From an uncultured Methanosarcinales archaeon (GTDB lineage: Archaea > Nanobdellota > Nanobdellia > Woesearchaeales > CAXGTL01): a stretch of 64,000 bases of DNA. Location of the stretch: positions 1 through 64,000 of the forward strand of contig CAZHVK010000008.1 of assembly GCA_964535955.1 (NCBI GenBank), read 5' to 3'. Position numbers and translations under genes: made by a program. The first letter of the stretch is position 1; each line of letters begins with the position of its first letter. Below the pieces are notes generated by a model. That model ran no database searches. It was not told where the DNA came from and was given only the letters and a program-made list of their open reading frames with translations. This document shows positions 7,151 through 57,538 of the stretch, in pieces.

Positions 7151-10100
7151 TCACCTTTTTGTGATCTTTACAATGAAATAAATAAAGATTGGTAAAATAA
7201 ATATAAATGATAAAGCTCCAATCAGCATCAAACTCATGCTTTTTTGTGTTTCTGTTTTTGGCTGAATTGGTTTTGCTATTTGTTTTTTTGGAGAAGGTGT
7301 TGGTGTTTTTGGTTCTGGTTTTTTGCAAGCTTGACAAGGCCCACCACAATCTATACCTGTTTCATCTTGATTCTTTTTCTTATCAAAACAACTTGGTTTA
7401 AGTGCTGTTGAAACCTTTACATCTGTTTCATCATCATCATTCAAACTTTTACAACCAGGATCTTTCATGTCGATCAGTCCGTCACCATCATTGTCTACTT
7501 TATCAGCACATTTTCTATTAACAGCTCTTCCAGCAGTAGAACTTGCAGCAGGACCACCTCTAATGATTGTAGTAGTTGTTGGTGATGCACTAACAAATTC
7601 AACAGCTGCTGAATGTTTTAATCCTGTTATAACAAATTTATCATCTTGTTTTTCACAAGTATAGTGTAATTTCTTGCCAGGACATTTGATCAATGTTTCA
7701 TTTTTGCCTTTACATTTTGCACTAACTTGTGTTATATTCTCAACTTCTTGATCTTTTATACATACTGCATTTGATGATTTTATCACACGATCCAAGTAAA
7801 GGATTTTTGTCATATTAGTTAAGCTAAGACCTTTCAACAATACAAATCCTTTTTTATCTGAAGAATTTTGTTTTGTGATTTTTATTTTATTAAAATCAAT
7901 CTTGTCAAGATTACTATAGTTTGTCAAGTTAATCTTAATATGTGTAATGTTATTTTTTCTTAAGATAAATTGTTTTGTTTTATTTAATTCTTTAATAAAA
8001 TCTTTTTTGATTAGGCCTTTCTTATCTTCAATGTCAAAACCAATCTTACAATCCAAGAGATCATCTACCTTAGAATTACAATCATTATCAGCCTTGTCAC
8101 ATATTTCTTTTGCACCAGGTTTTATTTTTTTATCCTTGTCATTACAGTCTGTGTTAGTTGTTACATAAGTACTTGGTTTTGTGCATGATTTTATTTGTAC
8201 AGAATTGTCTCCAAAACTATCTTTATCAGAATCCTTGTAAAATGTTATAGAAACTCCTTCATCAGTCTTCTGGTTGCAGTTATTGTCCATATAGTCGCAA
8301 ACTTCTGTTTCACCAGGGTTTATCTTTTTTACAGTATCATTACAGTCAGTACTGTCTGTGACATAACCTGAAGGTCTTGAACATGCTTGGATAGGTTCGC
8401 TTAAGTTGCCAAATCCATCTTCATCTGAATCTTTGTAAAATATTGTTGTTTTACCTTCATCTATTTGTTGGTTACAATTATTATCAATATTATCACATTT
8501 CTCTTTTTCACCTGGATTTATTTTCTTATTTGTGTCATCACAATCTGTATTGTCTGTCACATAATCTTTTGGTTTTGTACATGCTTGCTGTGATACAGCA
8601 TTGTTTCCATAATTATCTTTGTCAGAGTCTTGGTAATATGTTGTTTTTTGAACATTATTATCTATTGTTCCATCACAATCATTGTCTTTGTTGTCACATA
8701 CTTCTGTTTTACCAGGGTTTTTCTTTTTATCAGTGTCATCACAATCTGTATTGTCTGTCACATAATCTTTTGGTTTTGTACATGCTTGCTGTGATACAGC
8801 ATTGTTTCCATAATTATCTTTGTCAGAGTCTTGGTAATATGTTGTTTTTTGAACATCATTATCTATTGTTCCATCACAATCATTGTCTTTGTTGTCACAG
8901 GTTTCTGTTGTTGATTCAATACTGTCTTTACAATCATCCCATTGTCCTTTTACACATGTTTGTGTTCCTTTTTCACATTCTCCTATGTCTGTGCCGCATT
9001 CTTTTGTTTCATCAGTAGTGCATACACAATCTTCATCTGTGTTACCATCACAATTGTTGTCAATATTATCTCCACATATTTCACTGTCACCAGGAAGTAT
9101 TGAGCAAGTGCTCCAAGCACCTTCTGCTGTGCATGTTTTTTCAGAACCTGCACAAGAACCATCTTGATCACAATTACTTGTTGTTGTTAAAACTTCTCCT
9201 AAATCATCTTTATGTTTATCACCATCACAATTATGATCAATTCCATCACATTGTTCTGGTTGACGCAGTATTGAACAAGCACTCCAAGTACCTTCTGCTG
9301 TACATGTTTTTTCAGAACCTGCACAAGCACCTTCTTGGTCACAATCTCCTTGTGTTGNNNNNNNNNNNNNNNNNNNNNNNNNNNNNNNNNNNNNNNNNNN
9401 NNNNNNNNNNNNNNNNNNNNNNNNNNNNNNNNNNNNNNNNNNNNNNNNNNNNNNNNNTGTTGTTAAAACTTCTCCTAAATCATCTTTATTTTTATCACCA
9501 TCACAATTATGATCAATTGCATCGCATTGTTCTGGTTGAAGTAGTATTGAACATTCACTCCAAGCACCTTCTGCTGTACATGTTTTTATTGAACCTTGGC
9601 ATGCACCTTCTTGAACACAACCGCTTGTTGTTGTAAATGGATTATCTTGATCATCTAGATGTTTATGAGTGTCACAATCATGGTCCTTGTCATCACAAAC
9701 TTCAACATCTGTTGCATCTATATAATTACAACCATCACATTTTTTGCTAAGTTCTGTTGCATGACATTCATCCTTCTGTTCAATATTACATTCACAACAT
9801 TGTTCAACACATTTACCATCTTTGTTCACTTTATCGTCAGGATTATCACAGCATACTTCTAATGACAGAGAATCGTCACAATTATTTGTTATAAGATATT
9901 CATTAGCATCATCACCGCAGCATTCAAACTCTGTTTCAGGGCCACCATCTTCTTTGCTATCGTATTCACCAACTCCTGGTTCACCACTTTTTACCAATTT
10001 TAATCCTGCAGTTTCACAAATAGTAGTGGTTGAATCAACATCTATCCATTTTCCATTTGCACAGATAACTTTTTTATCATTATCAACACCAGATATGTCT

Positions 10101-15400: not shown

Positions 15401-18234
15401 TAAGTCATCTGCACCTAAGATGAATGTTGCTCTTTTTATACCATCTTCTTTTGCTTCATATTTTGTATCTAAGAGACCAATCTTTAAATAGCCACTTTCT
15501 TTACCTAACTTATATGTGTCACCAACATTAATCTTTCCTGTTTGTTCACCATTTATCTTAAAAGCAGCACGATCACTTGAATCAACATATGTTAGTTCTA
15601 CTTCATATGGTATATCATCAACTTTTAATAATCCTGTTTCACCTTGGTTAAGTGTTTCTTTTACTGCTCCACCAATTAATAATAATTTAACAGCACCTTG
15701 TATATAACCACCATTTCTTCTTGCAGATACAACAGTATATTCTTTACCTAAAAGATTTATATCTCTATTTGTAAATTCAGGCAAATATGTTCCATCTTTG
15801 TCTTTATTACCTTCTTTATCTGTAACAATAGATTCAACATGTGTTTCAAATTCTAATTTGTATCTAGCAATTTGTTTTCCATTAGGTATTATGAAATGAT
15901 CTGTCTGTACATCTGTGTCACTATATTCTATGAACTGAACAAAACCTGTATCAGAATTATCAAAAAACAATTTCTGAGAATATGGTTGTGCTACAAATGT
16001 TTTATATGATAATGAATATAATTCACTTGAACTAATACCACGAGATTCATCAATTCTAGGAACAACATCTCTTATTGTATCTTCTGGTGTTGCAGTACTT
16101 TGTGAATTACTTAGATAAAGGTTTTCATAACGTGTTTGGATTAACCAAGAATCTTTTCCAGATGAAATAAACACTTGTGGTAATCTTTGTTCAAAAGGAT
16201 GTTTTACATGTAGTTCAGGTATTCCTTTTGTTGGTTGATAAAATCTTACTTTTGTTCCATATGAAGTCATGCCATAACTATTCTCATGATTAACATATAA
16301 TCCTTTATTTCTTGTCATTGTGATTTTATCACCACTACCAGAAGCTGATAATTGGTAAATTATGTCATGAGGTTTAATTCTTTTTGAGTAAAAATCACCA
16401 TAAACTAATGATGAAATTTTTACACCAAAACCATTTTCTAAAACATTGCCTCTTCCTGGATCTGATGCTGAGAATTCAATCATTGCTCCTGAATATGTAT
16501 GAATAGGTACAATTAAATCATCACCAATTTCACCTGATGCATCATAGTCTATTGTTATTGGAAAATCATTCATTGTGTCTTTGCCTGCTAATTCTATTTT
16601 ATATTCTTCATTATAATATTTTAGATAAACATCTTGGCCTCTTTTGTAAGTTGCTTCAAAAGTATAACCATTACCCACATCTTTAAACATGATTGGAGGT
16701 GTAGTTGTGTCTGAAGTATATTTGTCAGCACCTTTGTACTGCATNNNNNNNNNNNNNNNNNNNNNNNNNNNNNNNNNNNNNNNNNNNNNNNNNNNNNNNN
16801 NNNNNNNNNNNNNNNNNNNNNNNNNNNNNNNNNNNNNNNNNNNNTGATTGGAGGTGTAGTTGTGTCTGAAGTATATTTGTCAGCACCTTTGTACTGCATA
16901 TGATGTTTTTGACCAGATTTACTTCTTAAATAGAACATATCATTTTTTTCAATAATATTTCCTATTTTTCCAGATCCATCTAAATCAATATTAAGATCAA
17001 AATCATTTGAAGTATCTGGGCTTGCTGTTTTTATTAAGAATTGACTTTTACCAAATTTAAGATAAATATCTTTTTCTCTTGAATAAGTTACATCAATGTT
17101 ATCACCACTTCCAACATCTGTGAAACTTATAGGAGGTGTTGTGTCATCTGTTCTATATTTGTCAGCACCTTTGTACTGCATTACATAGGATTTATTTTCC
17201 CACACATCTGTTAAAACAAAATAATCATTTTTCTTTATTATAGAATTTTCATCCATTATTGTGTAACGAGCAGAAGCTGGTGTTGAACTATATGAATCAC
17301 CAAGATAATAATTATTACTGTTAACAACACCAATTGGTAGATTTACTTGATTATTATTTGCATCTAAGAAAGTTAAGATATATCTTGAACCACCACTGCT
17401 TAGTATGCTGATGTTTTCTTGTTCTAGTTCTGGTAATTCTCCTGTACAAATACCATCTAAACAATTGTATGGACATTTATAATCATTCATCTGACATCTT
17501 AATCCATTTCCTCTGTCATCACAAACAATTTCTCTTAACCAGCCATCATGTTCACCACCAGTTATACATCCATCACCCATGCTTCCACCAAAAGTGTCTG
17601 CACATTCTCCTTTTACATAATAATTCTTGCCATTGTCAGTATCAATACATCCTGGTTCTTCTGTAAAATCAAGTTTACCACTATCTGACATCTTGATCAT
17701 ATAAGCTTTGTCAGAATAAAAATCTTTTAATGTGTTAAAACGAAGAGGAACACCAGGATCGTAAACTTTTGTGCCTGTTGATGCAAAATCTCTTATAACA
17801 ATAACATTGTCTTTGATTAGTTCTATTGATTGGTCAATTGATTTTGGTTTACTGCCTAAATAAGGAAAACAGTTCCAGCCTTTGTGTAATGATATTGTTT
17901 TGTCTTGGTCAAAAGAAAATGAACCAGTTAATAATAATTCTGCTTTATCCTTCATCTTTATTTGATATGCTTTACCATATTCTATTTGTTTTAAAGTATT
18001 GAATCTTAAAGGAATACCAGGATCATAAACTTTTGTACCACTATCTGTATATTCTCTAATAACTATAATCTTATCCATGATAGGATCAAATGCTTTGTCT
18101 ATTTCTTTTACATCTGGATCTATTGCTACTGGTATAATATTCCAGCCTTCATGAAAGTCTAATGTTACAGCATCTGCCATAACAAATTGTACACACAGAA
18201 TTAATAAAATTATATAGATTAAGTTTTTTTTCAT
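12467..18234 (-). CDS. Large secreted mosaic protein with S-layer-like domains and Cys-rich modules (probably one gene split by a gap; ~1870 aa if the flanks overlap)
   Basis: ORF track pieces 16621..18234 and 12467..16744. The 55 bp on either side of the gap are identical and merging them keeps the frame. It has a signal peptide, paired GWN modules, repeated MQYKGADKY modules and an S-layer-like block (LLGKEYTVVSARR...KLLLIGGAVKETL). Confidence 0.75.
16745..16844. other. Scaffold gap (100 N) with 55-bp duplicated flanks
   Basis: 16690-16744 equals 16845-16899. Confidence 0.97.
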
Positions 18235-29384: not shown

Positions 29385-30887
29385 ATGCAAGATATTAATG
29401 TAATTAAGAAAGAATTAAAGAAATTAATAGTTGATAGTGTAAAGAATCAAGTTAAGAATCTAGATGGAAATGTAGGTATTTTGTTTTCTGGAGGAATTGA
29501 TAGCACAATTATTGCGTTTATTCTGAAGTCATTGGGTGTGAAGTTTACTTGTTATTGTTTTGGTCTTGATGAGCCTGGACTTAAAGAAGCTGAAGATATT
29601 GTGTGGGCAAAGAAAGTTGCACTTGAGTTGGGTTTTAATTTGAAAATTATTAATGTTGATTTAAGTGGTGCAGAGAAATTGGTTCATCGAACTACAAAAG
29701 TTTTAGCTGGCATGGATAATAAGGTTGTGCATGTGGGTGTTGGTAGTGTGATGATTGGTGTTTGTGATGCTGCTAAGAAAGATAAAACTGTCCACCTATT
29801 CTCTGGGTTAGGAAGTGAAGAATTGTTTGCTGGTTATCAAAGACATGAACAGTCTGATGATATTAATAAAGAATGTGCTCATGGTTTGGAGTTAATGAAG
29901 AAAGGTGATCTTGTTCGTGATAAATTAATTGCTGATTCTGAAGGTGTTAAGTTCTTTGTTCCATTTCTTGATGATAAGTTGGTTAAGTATTCTTTGACAG
30001 TTCCTGGTGAATTAAAAATTAAAGATGATGTTAAAAAATATATTTTGAGATTGGTTGGTGTGGATCTAGGTCTGCCTAAAACAATTGCTTTTAGAAAGAA
30101 AAAAGCTGCACAATATGGATCTAATATGGATAAAGCAATCATGAAGTTGGCTAAAAAGAATGGTTTTAAATTTAAATCACATTATCTAAATCATCAAATA
30201 AAGTTAGGTGCACTTGTTTCAGGTGGAAAAGATTCAATATTTGCAATGTATAAAATGATTAAGCAAGGTTATGATGTAAAGTGTTTGATAACTGTTAAAT
30301 CTAAAAATCTTGATTCTTACATGTTTCATACACCTAATATTGATCTTGTTAAACATCAAAGTATTGCTCTTGACTTACCAATGGTTTATATTGAAACAAA
30401 AGGTGAGAAGGAGAAGGAATTAGTGGATTTGAAAAAGATTATAAAAGAAGCAAAGGATAAAGAAAAACTAGATGGAATTATAACAGGTGCTCTTTTTTCT
30501 ACCTACCAACGTGAGCGTGTTGAAAAGATTTGTGATGAGTTAGGTTTAGTTTGTTTTTCTCCATTGTGGCACACTGATCAAGAAACTTTGCTCCACCAAT
30601 TAATAGAGAATAAGTTTAGAGTAATGATTGTAGCTGTTGCTGCTGATGGTTTGGGTGAAGAAGATCTTGGTGAAGTTATTGATGAAAAATTTATAAAAAA
30701 AATGGTTGAATTGAACAAGAAGAATAAAATAAACATTGCATTTGAAGGTGGTGAAGCAGAAACACTTGTTATTGATTGTCCTATTTTTAAGAAAAGGTTA
30801 GAGATTGTTAAAGTAAGGAAAGAAATGGAAAATAAATATACTGGAAAGTATATAATAGAGGATATAAGATTGGTTGATAAAGTGTGA
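29385..30887 (+). CDS. dph6: Fusion: asparagine-synthase C-terminal domain + diphthine-ammonia ligase (Dph6)
   Basis: Two PP-loop motifs: FSGGIDS (with GLGSEELFAGY and RKKKAAQYGS) and VSGGKDS (with SYMFH, FSPLW and FEGGEAETLV.DCPIF). Confidence 0.88.
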   Translation: MQDINVIKKELKKLIVDSVKNQVKNLDGNVGILFSGGIDSTIIAFILKSLGVKFTCYCFGLDEPGLKEAEDIVWAKKVALELGFNLKIINVDLSGAEKLVHRTTKVLAGMDNKVVHVGVGSVMIGVCDAAKKDKTVHLFSGLGSEELFAGYQRHEQSDDINKECAHGLELMKKGDLVRDKLIADSEGVKFFVPFLDDKLVKYSLTVPGELKIKDDVKKYILRLVGVDLGLPKTIAFRKKKAAQYGSNMDKAIMKLAKKNGFKFKSHYLNHQIKLGALVSGGKDSIFAMYKMIKQGYDVKCLITVKSKNLDSYMFHTPNIDLVKHQSIALDLPMVYIETKGEKEKELVDLKKIIKEAKDKEKLDGIITGALFSTYQRERVEKICDELGLVCFSPLWHTDQETLLHQLIENKFRVMIVAVAADGLGEEDLGEVIDEKFIKKMVELNKKNKINIAFEGGEAETLVIDCPIFKKRLEIVKVRKEMENKYTGKYIIEDIRLVDKV

Positions 30888-40611: not shown

Positions 40612-40662
40612 ATTAATATTATTTGTAAGTTCTTATATATAAATGTTACCAAAAACTGACTC

Positions 40663-40829
40663 CATCCAAAAATCCTATTCCGTTTTGCTCGCTTTGCTCA
40701 CAAAACTCCATCTGGCCATGCCATCAATTCCTTTGGAATCAATGGCATTGATGTGTCAGAAATGTATATCATTTCTGAGCATGCTCAGAAACCTATGGTT
40801 TCTGACATCACAGACGGACATTTTGGATG
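40663..40829. repeat. Structured dispersed element family B, carrying a nested family A element (40754-40807)
   Basis: CATCCAAAA...TTTTGGATG terminal inverted repeat; homologous to 47571-47686. Confidence 0.85.
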
Positions 40830-40879
40830 AAGTCACATATACCAAAAACTATATAAACCAACCAGATTTCTTATATACT

Positions 40880-41227
40880 ATGGCTGGAATAAAGAAAAGA
40901 TTAGAAGAAGAAAAAAAACAAAAAGAACTAGAAATAAGAAGAACTAGGATGCCTAGAGATAAGCAGGTTCTTGGGATAGTTGAACAAAGATTGGGTGGTT
41001 CTAGAATGCATGTTAGGTGTCTTGATGGTAAAAATCGTATATGTAGAATACCTGGAAGATTAAAAAGAAGATTATGGGTTAGAGAAGGTAATTTTGTGAT
41101 TGTTGAACCATGGGAACTTGGTGGAGATGCAAAAGGAGATATAATTTATAAGTATAGACCTACACAAGTAGAATTCTTAAAACAAAAAGGAATGTTAAAA
41201 CAGTTAGAAGATGCTGATGAGTTTTAG
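40880..41227 (+). CDS. eif1a: Translation initiation factor aIF-1A
   Basis: [36 protein letters not shown] and KGDIIYKY motifs; start moved downstream of the repeat element. Confidence 0.95.
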
Positions 41228-41700
41228 TGTTTCTTTTTAATAAAATAAATAGCTAATAATATTGCACCAATTGTTATTGCACTATCAGCTATATTGAACA
41301 CAGGCCAAATACTGATTTTTATAAAATCTGTTATTGTGCCTAAAAAGATTCTATCAATCAGATTACCAAATGCACCGCCTAAGATAAGGCTAATGCTTAT
41401 TGCTAGTTTCCTGTTTTTGATGTCTTTTAAATAATAAATTATTACACAGATAATCAGAACATTAATGATTATCATAATTGGCTGCATGTTTTTAAATAAA
41501 CCAAATGCAATGCCTGTGTTTTGTATGTGTGTTAGTTCTAATACTTTTGGTATCAATGTTTCTGATTCATGCAATGCAAAAGATGTTCTGATTAAGAATT
41601 TTGTTAATTGGTCAAGTAGAATAATGAATATTGTGATTGAGAAGATTAGTTTGTAGTATTTAATACCCTTTCCTCTGTTCTTCAAGTGCGATCTCTTCAA
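41224..41700 (-). CDS. lspA: Lipoprotein signal peptidase II
   Basis: [25 protein letters not shown] and PVFNIADS motifs; exact start uncertain. Confidence 0.92.
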
Positions 41701-50542: not shown

Positions 50543-51517
50543 TCACAACCTAATCTCCTTTTCCAACCATTCAATATGTTCATGTTTTCTTTTCCAGAAT
50601 ATGTCTTCAAATATATAATGAGCTGCAAGCATTCTGTATTTCCCATATGTTTTTTTGAAATAGTTTAGGATTCTATCTGTTGATACTAAGGCTTTATTGA
50701 ATATTAATTTTGAATATATCTTTTGTTCCCATGGTGAGATATAATCAAAAGCATCATAATGATGATAAACTTCAAATAAAATGTACCAAACAGAAGCAGG
50801 ACCTATGCCATATAATTTAATAAGTTCTTCTTTTGCTTTGTCTTTACCTAATTTTCTTATCTCATATTCATTGATTTCTTTGTTTGCAAACATTTTTGAG
50901 ATCCTTTTTAAGAACTTTGCTCTGTAACCTATTTTCAATGTTCTTAATTCATCTTCACTTACTTTGTTTAATCTTTTTGGAAGCCAAAATGTGTTTAATT
51001 CCACAGAATCAAATCTTACTTTTTTCCCATACTTATCAAATAAGTTCTGCATCATCTGAACACTTCTTCTGACTGTTGCATTTTGCAAAACAATGCACAC
51101 AATCAAGAATTCGTATAATGAATAATCACAACTGATTCTCATTCCTTTGAATTTTTTTATAATATCTTTAAGAATCCTATCTTTTTTGAATTTATTAAAG
51201 AATTCTGAAAAATCTGTTTCAAAGTCATATCTCCATTTAACCTCATTAATAATCTCTGTGATCTGTTTTTTGTTTAGTTTGTCTTTATAATAAATACTTA
51301 ATTTAATCTTTGGTTTTGCTATTGTTCCTTTGTTTTCATATTTCAAGCCACAATATTTGTTTTTAAAAATAAAGCTTTGATAAAATATATTTTTTTCCCA
51401 TTTAATATTCTGAGTAGGAAAATGTGATGGTTTATGAAAAGTATAATTAAAATTATATGGTGATTGTGGTGTTAATGTTGCTGATTTCTTTTTGTCTAAT
51501 ATTATTGATTTTGGCAT
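50543..51517 (-). CDS. HhH-GPD DNA glycosylase (AlkA/OGG-like)
   Basis: YEFLIVCIVLQN, LKIGYRAK and LIKLYGIGPAS (HhH) motifs. Confidence 0.8.
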   Translation of the reverse strand: MPKSIILDKKKSATLTPQSPYNFNYTFHKPSHFPTQNIKWEKNIFYQSFIFKNKYCGLKYENKGTIAKPKIKLSIYYKDKLNKKQITEIINEVKWRYDFETDFSEFFNKFKKDRILKDIIKKFKGMRISCDYSLYEFLIVCIVLQNATVRRSVQMMQNLFDKYGKKVRFDSVELNTFWLPKRLNKVSEDELRTLKIGYRAKFLKRISKMFANKEINEYEIRKLGKDKAKEELIKLYGIGPASVWYILFEVYHHYDAFDYISPWEQKIYSKLIFNKALVSTDRILNYFKKTYGKYRMLAAHYIFEDIFWKRKHEHIEWLEKEIRL

Positions 51518-51619
51518 ATAGAAGTAGTATATCTAATTATATATAAATGTTCATACTTGATAAACAAGATTATTTCATATCCCAAAATTTAAATATGTTC
51601 TCACCTAACTTTTCTCTAT

Positions 51620-52432
51620 ATGAAGAAACTACTAACTGTAACAGCAGTGTGTTTGGTATTGTGTGGTTGTAGTTCATACTGTTCTGATAAAGCATATGCA
51701 GAAACATACAAATTAAAAGATGAAGATAAATTTAAACTTCAGCCTCATGTTGCTCTGCCTAGGCAGATGAGTATTGAGAATATGATTGAGTTTTATGCTG
51801 TGAAGTATGGTGTTAGGCCTGAGTTTATGAAAGCAATCTGCAAAGTAGAATCTAATTTTAAGCCTGATTGTGTATCATATCTAGGTGCTGCTGGTTTGTT
51901 TCAGTTCATGCCATATACTGCTGAATCAATAGGGTTAAAGATCTATAAAAATGAATTCTATACAAAAGCAATGAGTGCACAAACAAAAAAAGATAAACAT
52001 AAAAATCTAAAATTATATGCTAGTAGTTTTGAAAATTTTATTCGTTTGGTTGGTTTTGAAAAAGCAAAAACAATTGATCAGAGATTAGATAGAAATTATT
52101 GTGTGCAGAGTGCTGGAAGTTATATCAAAGCAAAACAAGAAAGGCATGGTAATGAAGCTTTGGCTGCTGCTGCTTATTTTGCTGGATCTGGTGCTGTTGA
52201 TGATTATGATGGTATTCCATCTTATGCAATTAATTATGTTGAAAAAGTTGCTGATAAGATGAAGGGCTTTGGAAGAGTTATGACTGGTTTAAAAGAGATT
52301 GAGAAAGCTAAGAAAAACAGAGGAAAACCACCAAAAAAGAAAAAAGAAAAAAAGAAGTATCGTACATTAAACAAGGTTATCAGAGAAATAAGAAAAATAG
52401 ACAGGTTAAGAAAATTTATATTTAGGTGGTGA
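51620..52432 (+). CDS. Lytic transglycosylase (SLT domain), putative lipoprotein
   Basis: Catalytic KVES; motifs S..GAAGLFQFMPYTA and AAAYFAGSGAV (AYNAG-like), INYVEKV; N-terminal VLCGC lipobox-like motif; Lys-rich tail. Confidence 0.88.
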   Translation: MKKLLTVTAVCLVLCGCSSYCSDKAYAETYKLKDEDKFKLQPHVALPRQMSIENMIEFYAVKYGVRPEFMKAICKVESNFKPDCVSYLGAAGLFQFMPYTAESIGLKIYKNEFYTKAMSAQTKKDKHKNLKLYASSFENFIRLVGFEKAKTIDQRLDRNYCVQSAGSYIKAKQERHGNEALAAAAYFAGSGAVDDYDGIPSYAINYVEKVADKMKGFGRVMTGLKEIEKAKKNRGKPPKKKKEKKKYRTLNKVIREIRKIDRLRKFIFRW

Positions 52433-53434
52433 TTAATTATGCAAATAAACCCTAAAACTATCCACATATGGAGAATTCCTTAATTTTTTTAATGATCTTG
52501 ATATGACAAGTCTTATTCCTTCCCTTGTCAAGTCATAATTTGCCTTGATTTCTTTTAAAGTTCTTTGAATTCCATCTCTTAAACCAAATCTCAACCTCAT
52601 TATTTCAGCATCCCTCTCAGATAAATACTTTGATAAGAAGCCTTCCACCTCAGACTTTAGTGCCAATTTGATTGCTGCATCCTCAGTACCCAACCTATTG
52701 TCTTTAACAAAATAATATTTTGATACAACACCTTTACCATCTTTTACTTTCTTGTCCAATGAATCACAAGTCTTATCATATCTTATTAATTCATTAAACC
52801 TTTCTTTAGAAATGTTTATTTCATGCGCCAGCTCATGATAATTAGGCTTTCTAAAATGTTTTCTAATGAACTTATTTTCAGTCCTAATCAGTTTGCCAAT
52901 CAACTCGTAAATCCAAGTAGGAATCCTTATAGTTCTGTCAGAATATATAATCTCATTAACAATCGCATTTCTTATTGACTTTCCTGCAAGATGAGATAGC
53001 TTTTTATTGAATTCAATCTTATATTTTCTTGCACATCTTAGCAAAGCAATGTTTCCCTCTTGAATCAAATCAAGAAAATCCAGTTTTCTAGTATCATACT
53101 CTTTTGCTATTTTCACAACCAAAGGCAAATTATTAGCAACTAAATCCTCTTCTGCTTCCTTGCTAAACTGCTTCTCCTTTCCTAATCTTAACTCTTCCTC
53201 AAGACTAAGAACTCTTACTTCTGGAAAACTAGTTATATATAACTTAAGGTTACTTTCCAAAAATTCTTTATCTTTAACATCATCTTCTTTTTTAGAATCA
53301 AATTCATCCCAATATTCAACATAATTAATATCTTTGCGCAAGCTTGTACAAAATCTTTCTATTTTCCCATCAATATCAGAATCTAGAATAAGTAATGCAA
53401 TTTCTGGTTCATATGCTGTTTGTACGTATTCCAT
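52433..53434 (-). CDS. Sigma70-family (RpoD-like) protein, divergent
   Basis: Region 1.2 LKLYI...LSLEEE; 2.1 NLPLVVKIAKEY; 2.2 DLIQEGNIAL; RTIRIP; region 3 PNYHELA...SLD; region 4 LSERDAEIMRLRFGL..RTLKEI..LTREGIR. Confidence 0.9.
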   Translation of the reverse strand: MEYVQTAYEPEIALLILDSDIDGKIERFCTSLRKDINYVEYWDEFDSKKEDDVKDKEFLESNLKLYITSFPEVRVLSLEEELRLGKEKQFSKEAEEDLVANNLPLVVKIAKEYDTRKLDFLDLIQEGNIALLRCARKYKIEFNKKLSHLAGKSIRNAIVNEIIYSDRTIRIPTWIYELIGKLIRTENKFIRKHFRKPNYHELAHEINISKERFNELIRYDKTCDSLDKKVKDGKGVVSKYYFVKDNRLGTEDAAIKLALKSEVEGFLSKYLSERDAEIMRLRFGLRDGIQRTLKEIKANYDLTREGIRLVISRSLKKLRNSPYVDSFRVYLHN

Positions 53435-53476
53435 TTATATATTAGTTTATATTAAAGGATTTATATATTTTACTGA

Positions 53477-54547
53477 TTAATTATATTTCCAGAAATCAAA
53501 GAACTTTTTTCTGAACATTGGACAAGCTCTTAATTTTCTAATTGCCTTTGCCTCAATCTGTCTTATTCTTTCCCTTACTACTCCATACTGCTCACCAATA
53601 CATTGTAAAGTCCTAGGGATTCCATCTTTCAAGCCAAATCTTTGCACCATCACATCAACTTCTTTCTCAGATAAATAATGTTTTTCATTAAAAAAATAAT
53701 CATACATACTTTTTCTTAGAACTGCATGATTGACAGCATTATCAACATTAAAATTTTTGTTTTCTATAAAATCTGACAATGTTTCACCTCCCTCATAAAT
53801 ATAATTTAAAGAAAGACATTTATGATTAGCTTTCATCAGTGTTTCTACTCTTTGTGGTTTATATCCAGAAGCTTGTGCAATCTCTAGATAAGTGGGTTTT
53901 CTTTTTAGTTTTTTTTCTAATTTTCTTTCATGTTGCAGTAATTGTGAAATTACTTGTACAGATTGAGCAGGTATTCTAATAGTTCTTGATTGTTCTTCAA
54001 TAGCCCTTACAATTGATTGTCTAATCCTATATGGTGCATATGTTGAAAATTTGTAACCAAATTTATAATCCCATTTTTTAACAGCTTTCATCAGACCTTT
54101 ATTACCTTCTTGAATAAGATCATTCCATTCTAAACCTCTATTTTTAAACATTTTAGCAACATGCACTACTAAACAAAGGTTTGCCTCTGTAAAATCATTC
54201 TCTGCTTGTTTACTTCCTTGTTCAATTCGTTTTGCTATTTTTTTTTGTTCTTCAAACTCCCTTATACATGATTTTTTCATTATCTCTGTTCTGTATTGTG
54301 AAAAAGAATTTGTATAGTCAATGTCTGGGTTTTGTTTTTCTTTCTTGTTATCTTGTGTTATCTGTTCAAATATATCATTATGTATTTCATTATCATGCTT
54401 TTCATTAGATTTTGTCTTTTTTTCTTGTTGTTTATTTATATTATATTCAAGAAGTTCTAATTCTATATTGTCTATTGATGTCTCTAGATTGACATTACAC
54501 TTAAGATCAATATTCACCTCTTTTGTCAATGTTTGTGTTTTATACAT
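53477..54547 (-). CDS. Sigma70-family (RpoD-like) protein
   Basis: ANLCLVVHVAK..NRGL..DLIQEGNKGLMKAV, GYKFSTYA, IRQSI.RAI..QSRTIRIP, PTYLEIA and RFGL.DG.PRTL..IG..GVVRERIRQIEAKAIRKLR motifs. Confidence 0.95.
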   Translation of the reverse strand: MYKTQTLTKEVNIDLKCNVNLETSIDNIELELLEYNINKQQEKKTKSNEKHDNEIHNDIFEQITQDNKKEKQNPDIDYTNSFSQYRTEIMKKSCIREFEEQKKIAKRIEQGSKQAENDFTEANLCLVVHVAKMFKNRGLEWNDLIQEGNKGLMKAVKKWDYKFGYKFSTYAPYRIRQSIVRAIEEQSRTIRIPAQSVQVISQLLQHERKLEKKLKRKPTYLEIAQASGYKPQRVETLMKANHKCLSLNYIYEGGETLSDFIENKNFNVDNAVNHAVLRKSMYDYFFNEKHYLSEKEVDVMVQRFGLKDGIPRTLQCIGEQYGVVRERIRQIEAKAIRKLRACPMFRKKFFDFWKYN

Positions 54548-54638
54548 AGTAATTTTGAGAAATCTAATTATTTGTTTTTAAAGTTTTTGGTTATAGGACT
54601 AAAGATTTATATATACCAAAAGATTAAAAGGTAATATA

Positions 54639-54965
54639 ATGAAATTTAAGGATTATAAATTAAAAATACATAATGTTGAAAAACATGTTAGATTAAATCC
54701 TGTAATGAAAACAAAAAAAGATTATGATGAAGAAATTCTTAGATTAAATGAATATTATGAAAAGATAAGGACTTATGAAAAAGAAGTAGAAGAGGACAAG
54801 GATCTGACAGACAGTGAAAGAGAACAATTGGTAATGTACTTAGGAGCTGTAAAAGACAAGATTGTTGATCAATTTAATAAAGTTACAGCTTTAGGTGATA
54901 AAATTATTAGAAAAAAGTTAGAAAAAGAGAATAAATGGGTGCCTGTTTTTGAAAAAGCTGCTTAA
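54639..54965 (+). CDS. Hypothetical protein
   Basis: 108 aa helical ORF divergent from the sigma genes; TTTATATA upstream. Confidence 0.65.
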   Translation: MKFKDYKLKIHNVEKHVRLNPVMKTKKDYDEEILRLNEYYEKIRTYEKEVEEDKDLTDSEREQLVMYLGAVKDKIVDQFNKVTALGDKIIRKKLEKENKWVPVFEKAA

Positions 54966-55723
54966 GTGTGATTCATTTTCCATTTCTTCCTAAAAAACTT
55001 CAAAGCTTTATTTCTAAATTTAGAATCATTTATTTTTATAGTTATAGGTTCATCCCCCCACATACTTATCAAAACATGATCCTTAAATATCATCAAACCC
55101 CATGGAAAAACTTCATCAGTGTACTTAACTTTGTATGTTTTTTTAGTTGTATACAGCTTTTCCCATTCTTTTTTAGATTCTTTTGGTGCTAAACCTTTTA
55201 AAATAAGTTTTTTATCTTTAGCAATTGTATCTAATTGTAAAAAAAGATTATGAAGTTTTTCATCTTTTTGAAATTCTTTTGGTTGAGATATGAAAGGTGC
55301 TTCACTACCTTTTCTAGTATTAAAATAACTTTCCATAAAAGCAGTTTTAAACCCTTTTCTTCCTTCATATATCTCTGCACTTGACTTTTTTGCTTGAGAT
55401 TTAATTGATTTTAGTTTAGGTAAACTTTTTTTAATTGTTTTTAGCTTTTTATCTAACACATTTTTCTGTTCCTGCACAAATCCAGTAAATACGTCAGGCT
55501 CTGCTGCATTATAATGCTTTATCTTACCTATTAATACAAATGTCACAAGACCTTTTTCAATCAACTTATTGACATTATTATGAACAACAGATGATTGTAG
55601 ATTTGTTTTTTTGATTATTTCACCGACTTTAGATTGTCCTAATTCTAATAAAATTAAGTAAATCACAGCCTGAGCATGTGTCAAACCAATATTCTGCAAT
55701 AATTCTATATCATTTCGATTCAT
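54962..55723 (-). CDS. TrmB family transcriptional regulator
   Basis: LQNIGLT..A.IYL.LLELG, L.EKGLV winged HTH, and IYEG.KG.K C-terminal domain. Confidence 0.85.
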   Translation of the reverse strand: MNRNDIELLQNIGLTHAQAVIYLILLELGQSKVGEIIKKTNLQSSVVHNNVNKLIEKGLVTFVLIGKIKHYNAAEPDVFTGFVQEQKNVLDKKLKTIKKSLPKLKSIKSQAKKSSAEIYEGRKGFKTAFMESYFNTRKGSEAPFISQPKEFQKDEKLHNLFLQLDTIAKDKKLILKGLAPKESKKEWEKLYTTKKTYKVKYTDEVFPWGLMIFKDHVLISMWGDEPITIKINDSKFRNKALKFFRKKWKMNHT

Positions 55724-55808
55724 ACTCTCCTAAGAAAGGAGAGTTAGTATATAAATATTACTATTTGTTACTATTTTTTTATTACAAACTGCTTGAGATA
55801 GAGACAAA

Positions 55809-56660
55809 ATGGATTATAGAGACAAGATAAAATTTGCAGATGAAAAAAGTCCTGAATTTATTAAGAATATGGATTATTTTTTTAGAAATTCAAATGAGGA
55901 TGTACAAATTACAACTGATTTTTTAAAAGAATTCAGGAAAAGATACAAACAACCAAAAACTAAGTTAGATTGGTTAGATGTTGGCACAGGACCTTGTGTT
56001 AAACCAATCATGATTTTAGAAGGAAGTAATAGAAATAGTGGTTTGATAAATGATTTCAATGAAATATATATTGATGTTATTGAGCCTGAAGAATCTTGGC
56101 ACGATATTTTTACACACAATCTTAATGAATTAGGATTATATTGGTTAATAACAAATATTTTTAGTTCAACATGGGAAGATTTTGATCAAGATAAAAAGTA
56201 TAATTTAATTACTTTTTTTCATTCAACATATGGGATTGATCCTGAATCATTAGGAAAAGTGCCAAATATATTGCATGAAGGTGGAATTGCATGCATTATA
56301 TTAGAAGATCCTGAATCTGCATTGTATAAAATTAAACAAAGAGTTAGTTCTTATATCAATTTAAGAGAAACAGTTTCATTTTCAAAAGAGATCTCTGATG
56401 TATTAAGTCAAAAAGGAATTTATCATGAAATTCAAAAAAATGAATCTAAGAGAATGCTTTATGTTGATGATCTATTGAAAGATGATGATATAACACAATT
56501 ATCATTTTTATTACAGACAAAATTAGAGAATCATGATAAAAGAATACAAAAAAAAGTATTAAATGAAATGAAAGATGAATTAAATAAACATATTAAAGAA
56601 GATCAAAATAGGAAAAAATATATAGAAACACCTGATGAATTTATATGGGTCTATAACTAA
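55809..56660 (+). CDS. Class I SAM-dependent methyltransferase
   Basis: WLDVGTGP, VIEP, YNLI..FHS.Y and LHEGG motifs. Confidence 0.8.
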   Translation: MDYRDKIKFADEKSPEFIKNMDYFFRNSNEDVQITTDFLKEFRKRYKQPKTKLDWLDVGTGPCVKPIMILEGSNRNSGLINDFNEIYIDVIEPEESWHDIFTHNLNELGLYWLITNIFSSTWEDFDQDKKYNLITFFHSTYGIDPESLGKVPNILHEGGIACIILEDPESALYKIKQRVSSYINLRETVSFSKEISDVLSQKGIYHEIQKNESKRMLYVDDLLKDDDITQLSFLLQTKLENHDKRIQKKVLNEMKDELNKHIKEDQNRKKYIETPDEFIWVYN

Positions 56661-56670
56661 CTGCAGAATT

Positions 56671-57183
56671 TCACTCAATCAAATCAACTATATAATCACA
56701 TTTATATTCTTGAATAATTGTTCCTACATCATAGAATTTTATCACATTAGAAAATTTAGATCTAATAACTCTTAAGACATCATCGAATTCTTTGAAATCT
56801 TTTGAACAAATTGCAATTGCTAGATCCCATTTACCAGTCATCTTATTTACATAGATAATATTCTTATGCTGGGTTAAAAACCCAATAAATTTATCTTCAA
56901 TTTCTGGAGTAAAATTAGACAAGCTAAACAAAACATAAGTATACATTGGATAACCTAATTTAGATGGATTCAAAAAAGCATGATACATACGAACAACCTT
57001 CAGATCTTCTAATCTTTTGATTCTATATTTTACAACATCTCTTTGTAATTTTGTTTTTCTAGCTATCTGGCTAATAGATTGTCTTGCATTAAGCTGCAAT
57101 TCTTTTAAGATCTTTTTATCTTTTTTATCTAACTTAACCTTTTCTCCAAACTCAATCAATGTATTTTTATGCATAATATCCAA
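56671..57183 (-). CDS. Lrp/AsnC family transcriptional regulator
   Basis: LDKKDKKIL.ELQ.NAR.S.SQIAR...V.YRIKRLE HTH; TGKWDL RAM domain. Confidence 0.92.
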   Translation of the reverse strand: MDIMHKNTLIEFGEKVKLDKKDKKILKELQLNARQSISQIARKTKLQRDVVKYRIKRLEDLKVVRMYHAFLNPSKLGYPMYTYVLFSLSNFTPEIEDKFIGFLTQHKNIIYVNKMTGKWDLAIAICSKDFKEFDDVLRVIRSKFSNVIKFYDVGTIIQEYKCDYIVDLIE

Positions 57184-57262
57184 AATGGATGAAATAATAT
57201 ATAAACTTTTCTATTTTGGTGGAAAAATAGGACATAAACATTTATATTATTAAGTTTATCAT

Positions 57263-57538
57263 TTGACTATGATGAAAGCAAATATACCACCTTGGCTTTG
57301 TTGGCTAATTGGAATATTGACCATAATTCCACTATCAATTGATTCTGGAAGACAGTTTTATTTAGAAAATAAACTATATAATCAAATAGAAATAGTAGCA
57401 GACACCAATAATGATAATAGAACCAGCGTAGATGAATGGGCTGAAGTCTATAAAAAGTTAGGAATTTATTTTAATGATCTTGATCCAAAAGACCTTACAA
57501 TAAAAGAAATGCAAAAATATTTATCAAGAAATAACTAA
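57263..57538 (+). CDS. Small membrane-anchored protein with EF-hand-like loop
   Basis: N-terminal hydrophobic helix; DTNNDNRTSVDE fits the Dx[DN]xD..xSxxE pattern. Confidence 0.55.
   Translation: MTMMKANIPPWLCWLIGILTIIPLSIDSGRQFYLENKLYNQIEIVADTNNDNRTSVDEWAEVYKKLGIYFNDLDPKDLTIKEMQKYLSRNN

Follow-up and report, generated by a model that had tools for sequence, protein, structure and literature searches.

Archaea start transcription with TBP and TFB, which leaves no obvious task for a bacterial sigma factor found in one of them. "Complete sigma factors in Archaea" are said to have been announced by Rinke et al. in Nature in 2013. The closest described system is the sigma-70 family (fam00359, K03086) of Castelle et al. 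(2021, PMC8204110), whose Table S3 gives it for 39 % of 196 Woesearchaeota, 38 % of 90 Pacearchaeota and 38 % of 37 Aenigmarchaeota genomes, and at lower frequencies elsewhere, e.g. 15 % in Micrarchaeota. About two in five Woesearchaeota genomes thus retain a sigma-70 gene though they otherwise shed genes. In that paper mis-binning is ruled out, anti-sigma factors are reported as not found and the mechanism is called unclear; TBP, TFB and TFE are reported as present. There fam00359 belongs to co-occurrence module 15, together with Lgt and LspA (each in ~83 % of Woesearchaeota genomes), and no bacterial core polymerase subunit occurs among 30 of the 31 families of this module. Our literature search returned no later functional work on DPANN sigma factors; a paper on a provirus was set aside as irrelevant, since the sigma factor it mentions is the RpoN of another provirus. 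We analyzed a tandem pair of sigma-70 genes, here called sigA' and sigB', in a stretch of 64,000 nucleotides (nt) of contig CAZHVK010000008.1 (positions 1 to 64,000, referred to as "the window"). The pair encodes K03086-like proteins on a contig with DPANN-archaeal genes and is a further case of the published phenomenon, so that the novelty claimed for it in an earlier note on this stretch was overstated.

The analysis makes it very probable that sigA' and sigB' are intact sigma-70 family genes, derived from bacterial group-1/2 (RpoD/SigA-like) factors and belonging to a DPANN genome of Woesearchaeota/Nanoarchaeota type, that they are adapted to this host in composition and codon use and share its promoter layout, and that they evolve fast. 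The sigma-70 observation itself is real and far beyond chance. The two open reading frames (ORFs) lie exactly where the earlier note had placed them: sigA' (53477..54547, 356 amino acids, aa) and sigB' (52433..53434, 333 aa) are adjacent on the minus strand, separated by a spacer of 42 nt, and both are full length, without frameshifts or stops. Their assignment draws on the ORFs, on Pfam and NCBIfam, and on AlphaFold2 (AF2) models compared by Foldseek.

In Pfam sigA' matches regions 2, 3 and 4 with 50.7, 32.4 and 45.2 bits, all above the curated cut-offs (24 bits for region 2, PF04542; 25.3 for region 3; 24.1 for region 4, PF04545). For sigB' regions 2 and 4 are above the cut-off (39.9 and 38.6 bits) and region 3 is just under it (23.5). 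With a region 2 domain, a region 4 helix-turn-helix and the overall fold, both proteins belong to the sigma-70 superfamily. Neither has a Pfam match to region 1.2 (PF00140) at E<=0.01; a region 1.2-like segment is visible in the alignment of sigA' and weak in that of sigB'. Region 1.1 (PF03979) is matched in neither protein, by Pfam or among the precomputed domains, and full-length RpoD models of NCBIfam align to sigA' starting at residue 9.

The best NCBIfam models are of RpoD type, but the equivalog cut-off of RpoD/SigA (group 1) is reached by neither protein. sigA' scores 238.2 bits with the RpoD model PRK09210 (cut-off 572) and 225.8 with RpoD_Cterm (cut-off 354); sigB' scores 160.3 bits with the latter and passes the superfamily model TIGR02937 (68.6 vs a cut-off of 42.9). 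We classed sigA' as group 1/2-like, i.e. with a weak region 1.2 and with regions 2, 3 and 4. The second protein, 32 % identical to the first, is more divergent: the aromatics of region 2.3 are gone, region 4.2 is partly altered and the region 3.2 linker is basic. The AF2 models, built from alignments of 52-53 rows, have a mean predicted local distance difference test (pLDDT) of 84.8 for sigA' and 75.7 for sigB'. Their N-termini are disordered or form a single long helix; in sigA' residues 1-24 are predicted as disordered and residues 25-72 as one long helix. Against the PDB, the top Foldseek matches are all bacterial SigA/RpoS chains at probability 1.00 (E 1e-21 for sigA', with SigA of holoenzymes; E 2e-15 for sigB'). 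The global template modelling (TM) scores against solved sigma factors are just 0.4-0.6, because the domains are arranged differently.

The relative conservation of each region was followed in four proteins, those of the window and the products of a second tandem pair, sig1 and sig2, at the related locus L002 described below. Positions are numbered as in E. coli K-12 RpoD, and the reference is a set of 58 bacterial rows in which 85 positions are conserved in at least 90 % of rows. sigA' retains 64 of these positions, sigB' 51, sig1 52 and sig2 53. In the same order of proteins, 11, 8, 8 and 10 of the 11 positions of region 2.2 are retained, 9, 4, 6 and 9 of the 12 positions of region 2.3, and 15, 10, 13 and 4 of the 18 positions of region 4.2. 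The motif R448-T-I-R451-x-P453 is present in all four proteins.

Changes fall among the residues that we take to be those melting the -10 element (Y430, W433 and W434), contacting the extended -10 element (H455 and E458) and contacting the -35 element (R584, E585, R588 and Q589). The pair W433/W434 is replaced by Y/R in sigA', K/S in sigB' and S/G in sig1 and is W/W in sig2 only, i.e. the Trp-Trp dyad is lost in three proteins out of four. This dyad occurs in all 238 other listed homologues and in 147 of 149 library representatives, the remaining two having one PW and one unreadable. Position 430 is Y, L, F and C in sigA', sigB', sig1 and sig2 respectively, and H455 is altered in all four. By the melting residues neither window protein is a group 1 factor (Y, Y, R in sigA'; L, K, S in sigB'). 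The substitutions of sigA' are T432P, W433Y, W434R, T440V, H455Q and E458Q; those of sigB' are Y425K, F427L, T429H, Y430L, W433K, W434S, Q437N, R441N, R586G and Q589L. The helix of region 4.2 reads R-E-R-I-R-Q in sigA' and sig1, R-E-G-I-R-L in sigB' and R-Y-K-L-K-K in sig2. Across the four proteins the pattern suggests a split between a conserved polymerase-docking patch, region 2.2, which in bacteria presumably docks on the beta-prime clamp helices, and fast-changing promoter-contact residues.

A scan by GatE alignment gathered 80 DPANN loci, against which the window proteins were run by tblastn. The sigma genes were found only in L002 (contig CAXGTL010000024.1, labelled Candidatus Woesearchaeota archaeon), the closest related genome available, whose GatE is 85 % identical to that of the window. 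Both loci share the backbone XPD-p220-GatE-...-SecD-SecF-M50-aRF1-...-LspA-aIF1A, and in L002 two tandem sigma genes (315 and 360 aa) directly follow GatE. Identities of orthologues along the backbone are 81 % for XPD, 78 % for SecD, 75 % for SecF, 72 % for M50, 83 % for aRF1, 73 % for LspA and 87 % for aIF1A, and three further flanking pairs, of unassigned proteins, are 41-65 % identical. The sigma proteins, in any pairing, are 31-36 % identical, vs 41-87 % for the flanking orthologues, and outside its own population the pair has no relative closer than ~36 %. The GatE-SecD stretch (50543-57538 in the window, 4099-7510 in L002) is a variable island: besides the sigma genes it holds Lrp, p91, p283, TrmB, p108, SLT and HhH-GPD in the window and a 120-aa secreted protein, a NUDIX protein and a 100-aa protein in L002. 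All but the sigma pair thus differ, with a conserved backbone on either side. The L002 sigma genes have TATA-like boxes at -30 and -32, and sig2 no longer matches the region 4 model.

A profile search of 3,165 ORF segments from the 80 loci and the window gave three further, much weaker sigma-like ORFs: one of 306 aa with regions 2 and 4 in locus L004, a fragment with regions 2 and 3 in L078, and a region-4-like piece, without Pfam match, in L011. A Pfam-confirmed sigma-70-domain ORF is therefore within reach at three of the 80 GatE loci.

The tree (62 rows, quick search, with a long-branch warning) places the four archaeal sigmas on one side of a branch whose support is just 31, and sigA', when it is placed by itself, falls in no supported clade. 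The end branches of the four proteins measure 2.5-7.2 substitutions per site vs a median of 0.6, i.e. 4-12 times the length of those of bacterial relatives. By its sequences, the sigma pair evolves extremely fast. As to the earlier proposal that the genes were acquired and duplicated, acquisition agrees with the presence of bacterial-type homologues in a real archaeal segment, with archaeal markers on both sides, host-like composition and copies on other contigs; for duplication, the tree would be compatible with one acquisition followed by duplication and equally with two acquisitions.

Searches for a source returned distant homologues. Word-indexed searches gave bacterial primary sigma factors (Bacillota, candidate phyla radiation (CPR) and others) at no more than 47 % identity to sigA' and 38 % to sigB'. 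An exhaustive search of 1.84 billion representatives gave 83,799 homologues, none closer than ~48 % over a full-length-type match, and among them no clade-mates of the pair. Homologues occur in 133 phage records, all below 60 % identity (best 43.8 %). Near-identity to a bacterium or a phage, which the earlier note had named as grounds for rejecting its proposal, was thus found in neither. In the ESM Atlas all matches were bacterial and viral sigma clusters, and a scan of the genome collection with sigA' alone gave 72 stretches matched by pattern, with no relative among them. Four top-scoring representatives were discarded as relatives: they contain internally repeated segments and are probably assembly artefacts. 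The sigA' protein cluster itself is present on six contigs, and sigB' recurs on a separate 4-kb contig with zero substitutions and one in-frame deletion of nine residues in the disordered N-terminus. This indel covers residues 44-52 (window 53280-53310) and distinguishes the window copy from an otherwise identical protein.

The AT-rich composition said to be common to the sigma genes and their neighbours was confirmed for GC content, GC content at third codon positions (GC3) and codon use. GC is 0.286 for sigA' and 0.308 for sigB' (0.298 +/- 0.032 for 45 window genes), GC3 is 0.176 and 0.246 (0.196 +/- 0.038), and the two genes rank 10th and 34th of 45 in codon-usage distance. The TATA-like boxes announced upstream of both genes are also present. 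That of sigA', TTTAAAAA (54575..54582 on the minus strand, read 54582-54575), begins 35 nt upstream of the ATG; that of sigB', TATATAAA (53460..53467 on the minus strand, read 53467-53460), begins 33 nt upstream, within the 42-nt spacer. Of 44 window genes, 25 (57 %) have a TATA-like hexamer that begins 26-36 nt before the ATG, vs 11-25 % in other upstream bins, and this spacing is the pattern of leaderless archaeal mRNAs. The upstream region of sigA' has no Shine-Dalgarno sequence, and its promoter is probably of the leaderless archaeal type. The sigma genes are apparently transcribed by the archaeal machinery. Matches to sigma-70-type promoters are not enriched in the window (74 vs 85.8 +/- 10.5 in shuffles), and no intrinsic terminator was found there (0 vs 4.1 +/- 2.3).

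The window as a whole is archaeal: it encodes aRF1, aIF1A, deoxyhypusine synthase, Dph2, a Dph6-like diphthamide enzyme, GatE, XPD, TrmB- and Lrp-type regulators and SecD/SecF. Where relatives of its GatE are named, the labels are Woesearchaeota, Nanoarchaeota or Nanoarchaeia, and the best genome loci by GatE alignment are Woesearchaeota metagenome-assembled genomes (MAGs). TrmB, Lrp, GatE, a HhH-GPD glycosylase and SecD/SecF lie within 0.4-3 kb on either side of the sigma pair. The statement that the pair is flanked without gaps by archaeal genes holds at this distance and fails for the direct neighbours, a bacterial-type SLT gene and a 108-aa ORF. The SLT gene (51620..52432, plus strand) abuts the stop of sigB', with which it is convergent; it encodes a lytic transglycosylase lipoprotein of 270 aa with a Pfam SLT domain (59.5 bits), a lipoprotein-type signal (…LCGC…) and catalytic E-S and G-L-x-Q motifs that align to MltC/EmtA structures. 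Its TATA-like hexamer at -32 has the same geometry as those of sigA' (-35) and sigB' (-33). It has no match in any of the 80 related loci, and its adjacency to the sigma genes is not kept in L002. An LspA (signal peptidase II) gene lies at 41224-41700 on the minus strand of the window; with the lipobox-like SLT protein it suggests a bacterial-style lipoprotein pathway in the archaeon. The 108-aa ORF (54639..54965, plus strand), K/E-rich, is divergent from sigA' across a 91-nt spacer; it has no Pfam match above the cut-off, no NCBIfam, PADLOC or PHROGs family and no tblastn match in the 80 related loci. A mobile-element origin was considered and rejected: the check found no tRNA and no Rfam match, and apart from SLT and helix-turn-helix matches at domain level the neighbours gave no phage or defence families.

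We infer that the two proteins are no longer canonical bacterial initiation factors: they lack region 1.1, each copy has its own substitutions at the residues that melt and read the -10 element, and a bacterial core polymerase for them to work with is not in view. Among the scanned ORFs of the window (64 kb of genome) there was no rpoA/B/C-type gene, and a catalytic-motif scan of the window and the 80 DPANN loci gave one archaeal Rpo1N and zero bacterial beta-prime; to our knowledge no bacterial core polymerase exists in DPANN organisms of this kind. Tentatively, in the reading that we prefer to its rivals though we hold it to be possible rather than probable, the proteins would act inside the archaeal cell as sigma-derived DNA-binding transcription regulators. 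Binding would take place through the region 4 helix-turn-helix and the region 2-3 surface, and the mode of use would be like that of other bacterial-type regulators in archaea, e.g. Lrp and TrmB. Region 1.1 blocks DNA binding by free sigma factor, and its absence would thus fit a DNA-binding regulator.

Several points weigh against such regulators. Divergence as high as this could also come from relaxed constraint or from an arms race. Region 2.2 is the best-kept part of the proteins, with D403, I405, Q406, E407, G408, N409 and L412 identical in all four of the lineage, and a stand-alone DNA binder would not obviously need this patch, which is however also part of the domain core. Moreover sigA' keeps the whole -35-reading helix R-E-R-I-R-Q and most of regions 2.3 and 2.4; its Tyr at position 433 could serve as an aromatic wedge, and true sigma activity could then be retained. 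Lastly, the 2.2 patch is not kept in the sigma-like ORFs of L004 and L078, so the family is heterogeneous and a single function for it is uncertain.

The kept 2.2 patch would be explained if the proteins were accessory factors of the archaeal polymerase, with region 2 docking on Rpo1N at its clamp coiled-coil, which is homologous to the clamp helices of bacterial beta-prime, and with the protein modulating initiation from there alongside TBP, TFB and TFE. The clamp regions of bacterial beta-prime and DPANN Rpo1N can be aligned (40 % identity over 130 residues), and the archaeal-type promoters of the pair, in a reduced genome, argue for a cellular role. But this seems unlikely to us. The beta-prime clamp-helix residues R275, E295 and A302, which we take to be required for sigma-70 binding, align to I, L and H in the DPANN Rpo1N available; this counts weakly, the sequence being from an Aenigmatarchaeota MAG (L050), i.e. 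another organism than that of the window. Furthermore we know of no precedent for a sigma homologue as accessory factor of an archaeal polymerase. Finally, the family is found in just ~39 % of Woesearchaeota in Table S3 of Castelle et al. (PMC8204110), hence it can be no core part of their transcription machinery.

The same I, L and H residues, being weakly against a docking site on the archaeal polymerase, would fit proteins directed at a bacterium. The sigma proteins would be passed to a bacterium that serves as host or prey, where they would attach to the core RNA polymerase via region 2.2 (and 4) and redirect transcription or, without melting residues, block it as decoys. Phage-encoded sigma factors, and nuclear-encoded plastid sigma factors serving the polymerase of another genome, are analogues. 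A docking patch identical in all four proteins next to variable promoter-contact residues is what such a role would leave, and the low identity of the sigmas at a conserved locus (31-36 % vs 41-87 %) is as in an arms race. The product of the adjoining gene is an SLT lipoprotein that cleaves peptidoglycan and has its catalytic motifs intact, and Castelle et al. (PMC8204110) suggest that some Woese- and Pacearchaeota are episymbionts of bacteria. Disparities nevertheless appear: no signal peptide or export signal is visible in either sigma sequence, the adjacency to SLT is not kept in L002 and SLT is found at none of the 80 related loci. We are aware of no pathway by which DPANN cells could pass proteins into bacteria. 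Two copies per genome with differing promoter-reading residues are left unexplained. In addition, according to Table S3 of Castelle et al. (PMC8204110), members of the family are also present in DPANN groups whose hosts are thought to be archaea, e.g. in 15 % of Micrarchaeota, and against such a host a sigma factor would be useless. On balance we regard a target in a bacterium as rather improbable. Its boldest form is a long shot: the tandem sigmas would be fast-evolving weapons or tools, the wall of the bacterial partner being breached with the help of the lytic transglycosylase lipoprotein and its core RNA polymerase seized by the 2.2 patch of the sigma mimics, which would reprogram or jam transcription. 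If true, a cellular organism would here, for the first time, be seen to take over the transcription machinery of another domain.

The very long branches (2.5-7.2 vs a median of 0.6), the loss of near-invariant residues (64 and 51 of 85 retained in sigA' and sigB') and the missing region 4 match of sig2 could also be those of decaying relics, i.e. transferred DNA without function drifting to loss. This is very unlikely, since both ORFs are full length without frameshifts or stops, their folds are confidently predicted by AF2 and each gene has its own promoter box. On the independent contig sigB' differs by one in-frame deletion and by no substitution, and the tandem pair is retained at the same locus in L002 while the other genes of the island were exchanged. 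The genome is, moreover, small and streamlined, and the family is widespread in DPANN in the table of Castelle et al. (PMC8204110). An artefact of assembly or binning, i.e. bacterial or phage DNA wrongly joined to an archaeal contig, is extremely improbable: two runs of N (9358-9457 and 16745-16844) make the window a scaffold, but the sigma genes are over 35 kb away from them and have archaeal genes within 0.4-3 kb on both sides, composition, codon use and promoter layout are host-like, a Woesearchaeota MAG assembled independently shows the same backbone XPD-GatE-[sigma, sigma]-SecD-SecF-M50-aRF1-LspA-aIF1A, the sigA' cluster is on six contigs, and mis-binning is ruled out for the family by Castelle et al. 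(PMC8204110).

Other observations concern the window and the related loci. Between 2 and 23589 the minus strand carries a run of giant ORFs (1425-2370 aa), three with S8 subtilase domains plus MopE-type or FG-GAP repeats; the subtilase-domain ORFs probably encode surface proteins, and the SLT domain is in none of the giant ORFs of this run. Unlike most genes of the window, the giant ORFs are preceded by a Shine-Dalgarno-like box (GGTGGT/GGTGAT) and, further upstream, at -42 to -50, by a TATA-like box. The two N runs, each of exactly 100, lie one inside a giant ORF and one directly upstream of another. The aIF1A ORF (40643-41227, plus strand) is 194 aa long, with an eIF-1a domain at residues 108-170 only, where the 92-aa orthologue of L002 is 87 % identical; it has either an N-terminal extension or a start called too far upstream. 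A 500-aa ORF at 29385-30887 (plus strand) joins an asparagine-synthase-like N-terminal domain to a C-terminal diphthamide synthase (Dph6-type) domain.

In L004, a Nanoarchaeia MAG, the divergent sigma-like gene (8412-9844, minus strand; regions 2 and 4, dyad P-C) lies ~2 kb from GatE; a co-oriented lipoprotein-like gene (…LAGC…) located upstream overlaps it. The sigma pairs of the window and of L002 are likewise directly adjoined by genes for secreted proteins or lipoproteins, an adjacency that may be due to chance in genomes rich in such genes. Several MAG records (L051, L005, L015, L017, L019 and others) hold a DPANN-like archaeal GatE under labels that seem at odds with it, e.g. "Candidatus Liptonbacteria bacterium" or "uncultured Methanosarcinales archaeon", and probably reflect binning or labelling problems in public records.

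The locus offers experimental handles, i.e. two intact copies with their own archaeal promoters, a split between docking patch and promoter contacts, and a syntenic, hyper-divergent sister pair. The question is thereby reduced to alternatives of binding: DNA alone, the archaeal polymerase or a bacterial polymerase. Binding to the last would bear on whether some DPANN archaea live on bacteria.

Compared with known systems, the pair resembles bacterial RpoD/SigA (group 1/2; Bacillota, CPR SigA) in the domain order 1.2-2-3-4, the predicted fold, region 2.2 and the RTIR-P motif, and sigA' also in the RERIRQ helix. In contrast to these factors, it has no region 1.1, misses the equivalog cut-offs widely, and has replacements at the WW dyad (sigA' and sigB') and at H455; its genes moreover reside in an archaeon, where they seem to be transcribed and where a bacterial core polymerase is not in view. 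With phage sigma-70-like factors (PHROG 351; rpoD-like genes of large phages) it shares the status of a sigma-70 homologue outside a bacterial chromosome, and phrog_351 is matched at E 2e-54. But its identity to phage proteins is below 60 % (43.8 % at best), no virion, integrase or other phage genes are near, and its backbone is shared with L002. The C-terminal sigma part of the model of MzaA, the sigma-70 component of the MZA anti-phage system, aligns to both proteins. Their scores of 217.8 and 149.3 bits are far from the cut-off of 800, the N-terminal part of ~400 residues is absent and no partner genes are among the neighbours; membership in MZA was therefore rejected on score and on partner genes. 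The closest likeness is to DPANN fam00359 (PMC8204110), compared by description and not by sequence: bacterial-type sigma-70 genes in Woesearchaeota-type genomes, with no anti-sigma factor nearby. Relative to the available parts of that report, the window adds a tandem arrangement, hyper-divergence at a conserved locus, a residue pattern in which region 2.2 is kept and the WW dyad lost, and an archaeal promoter layout.

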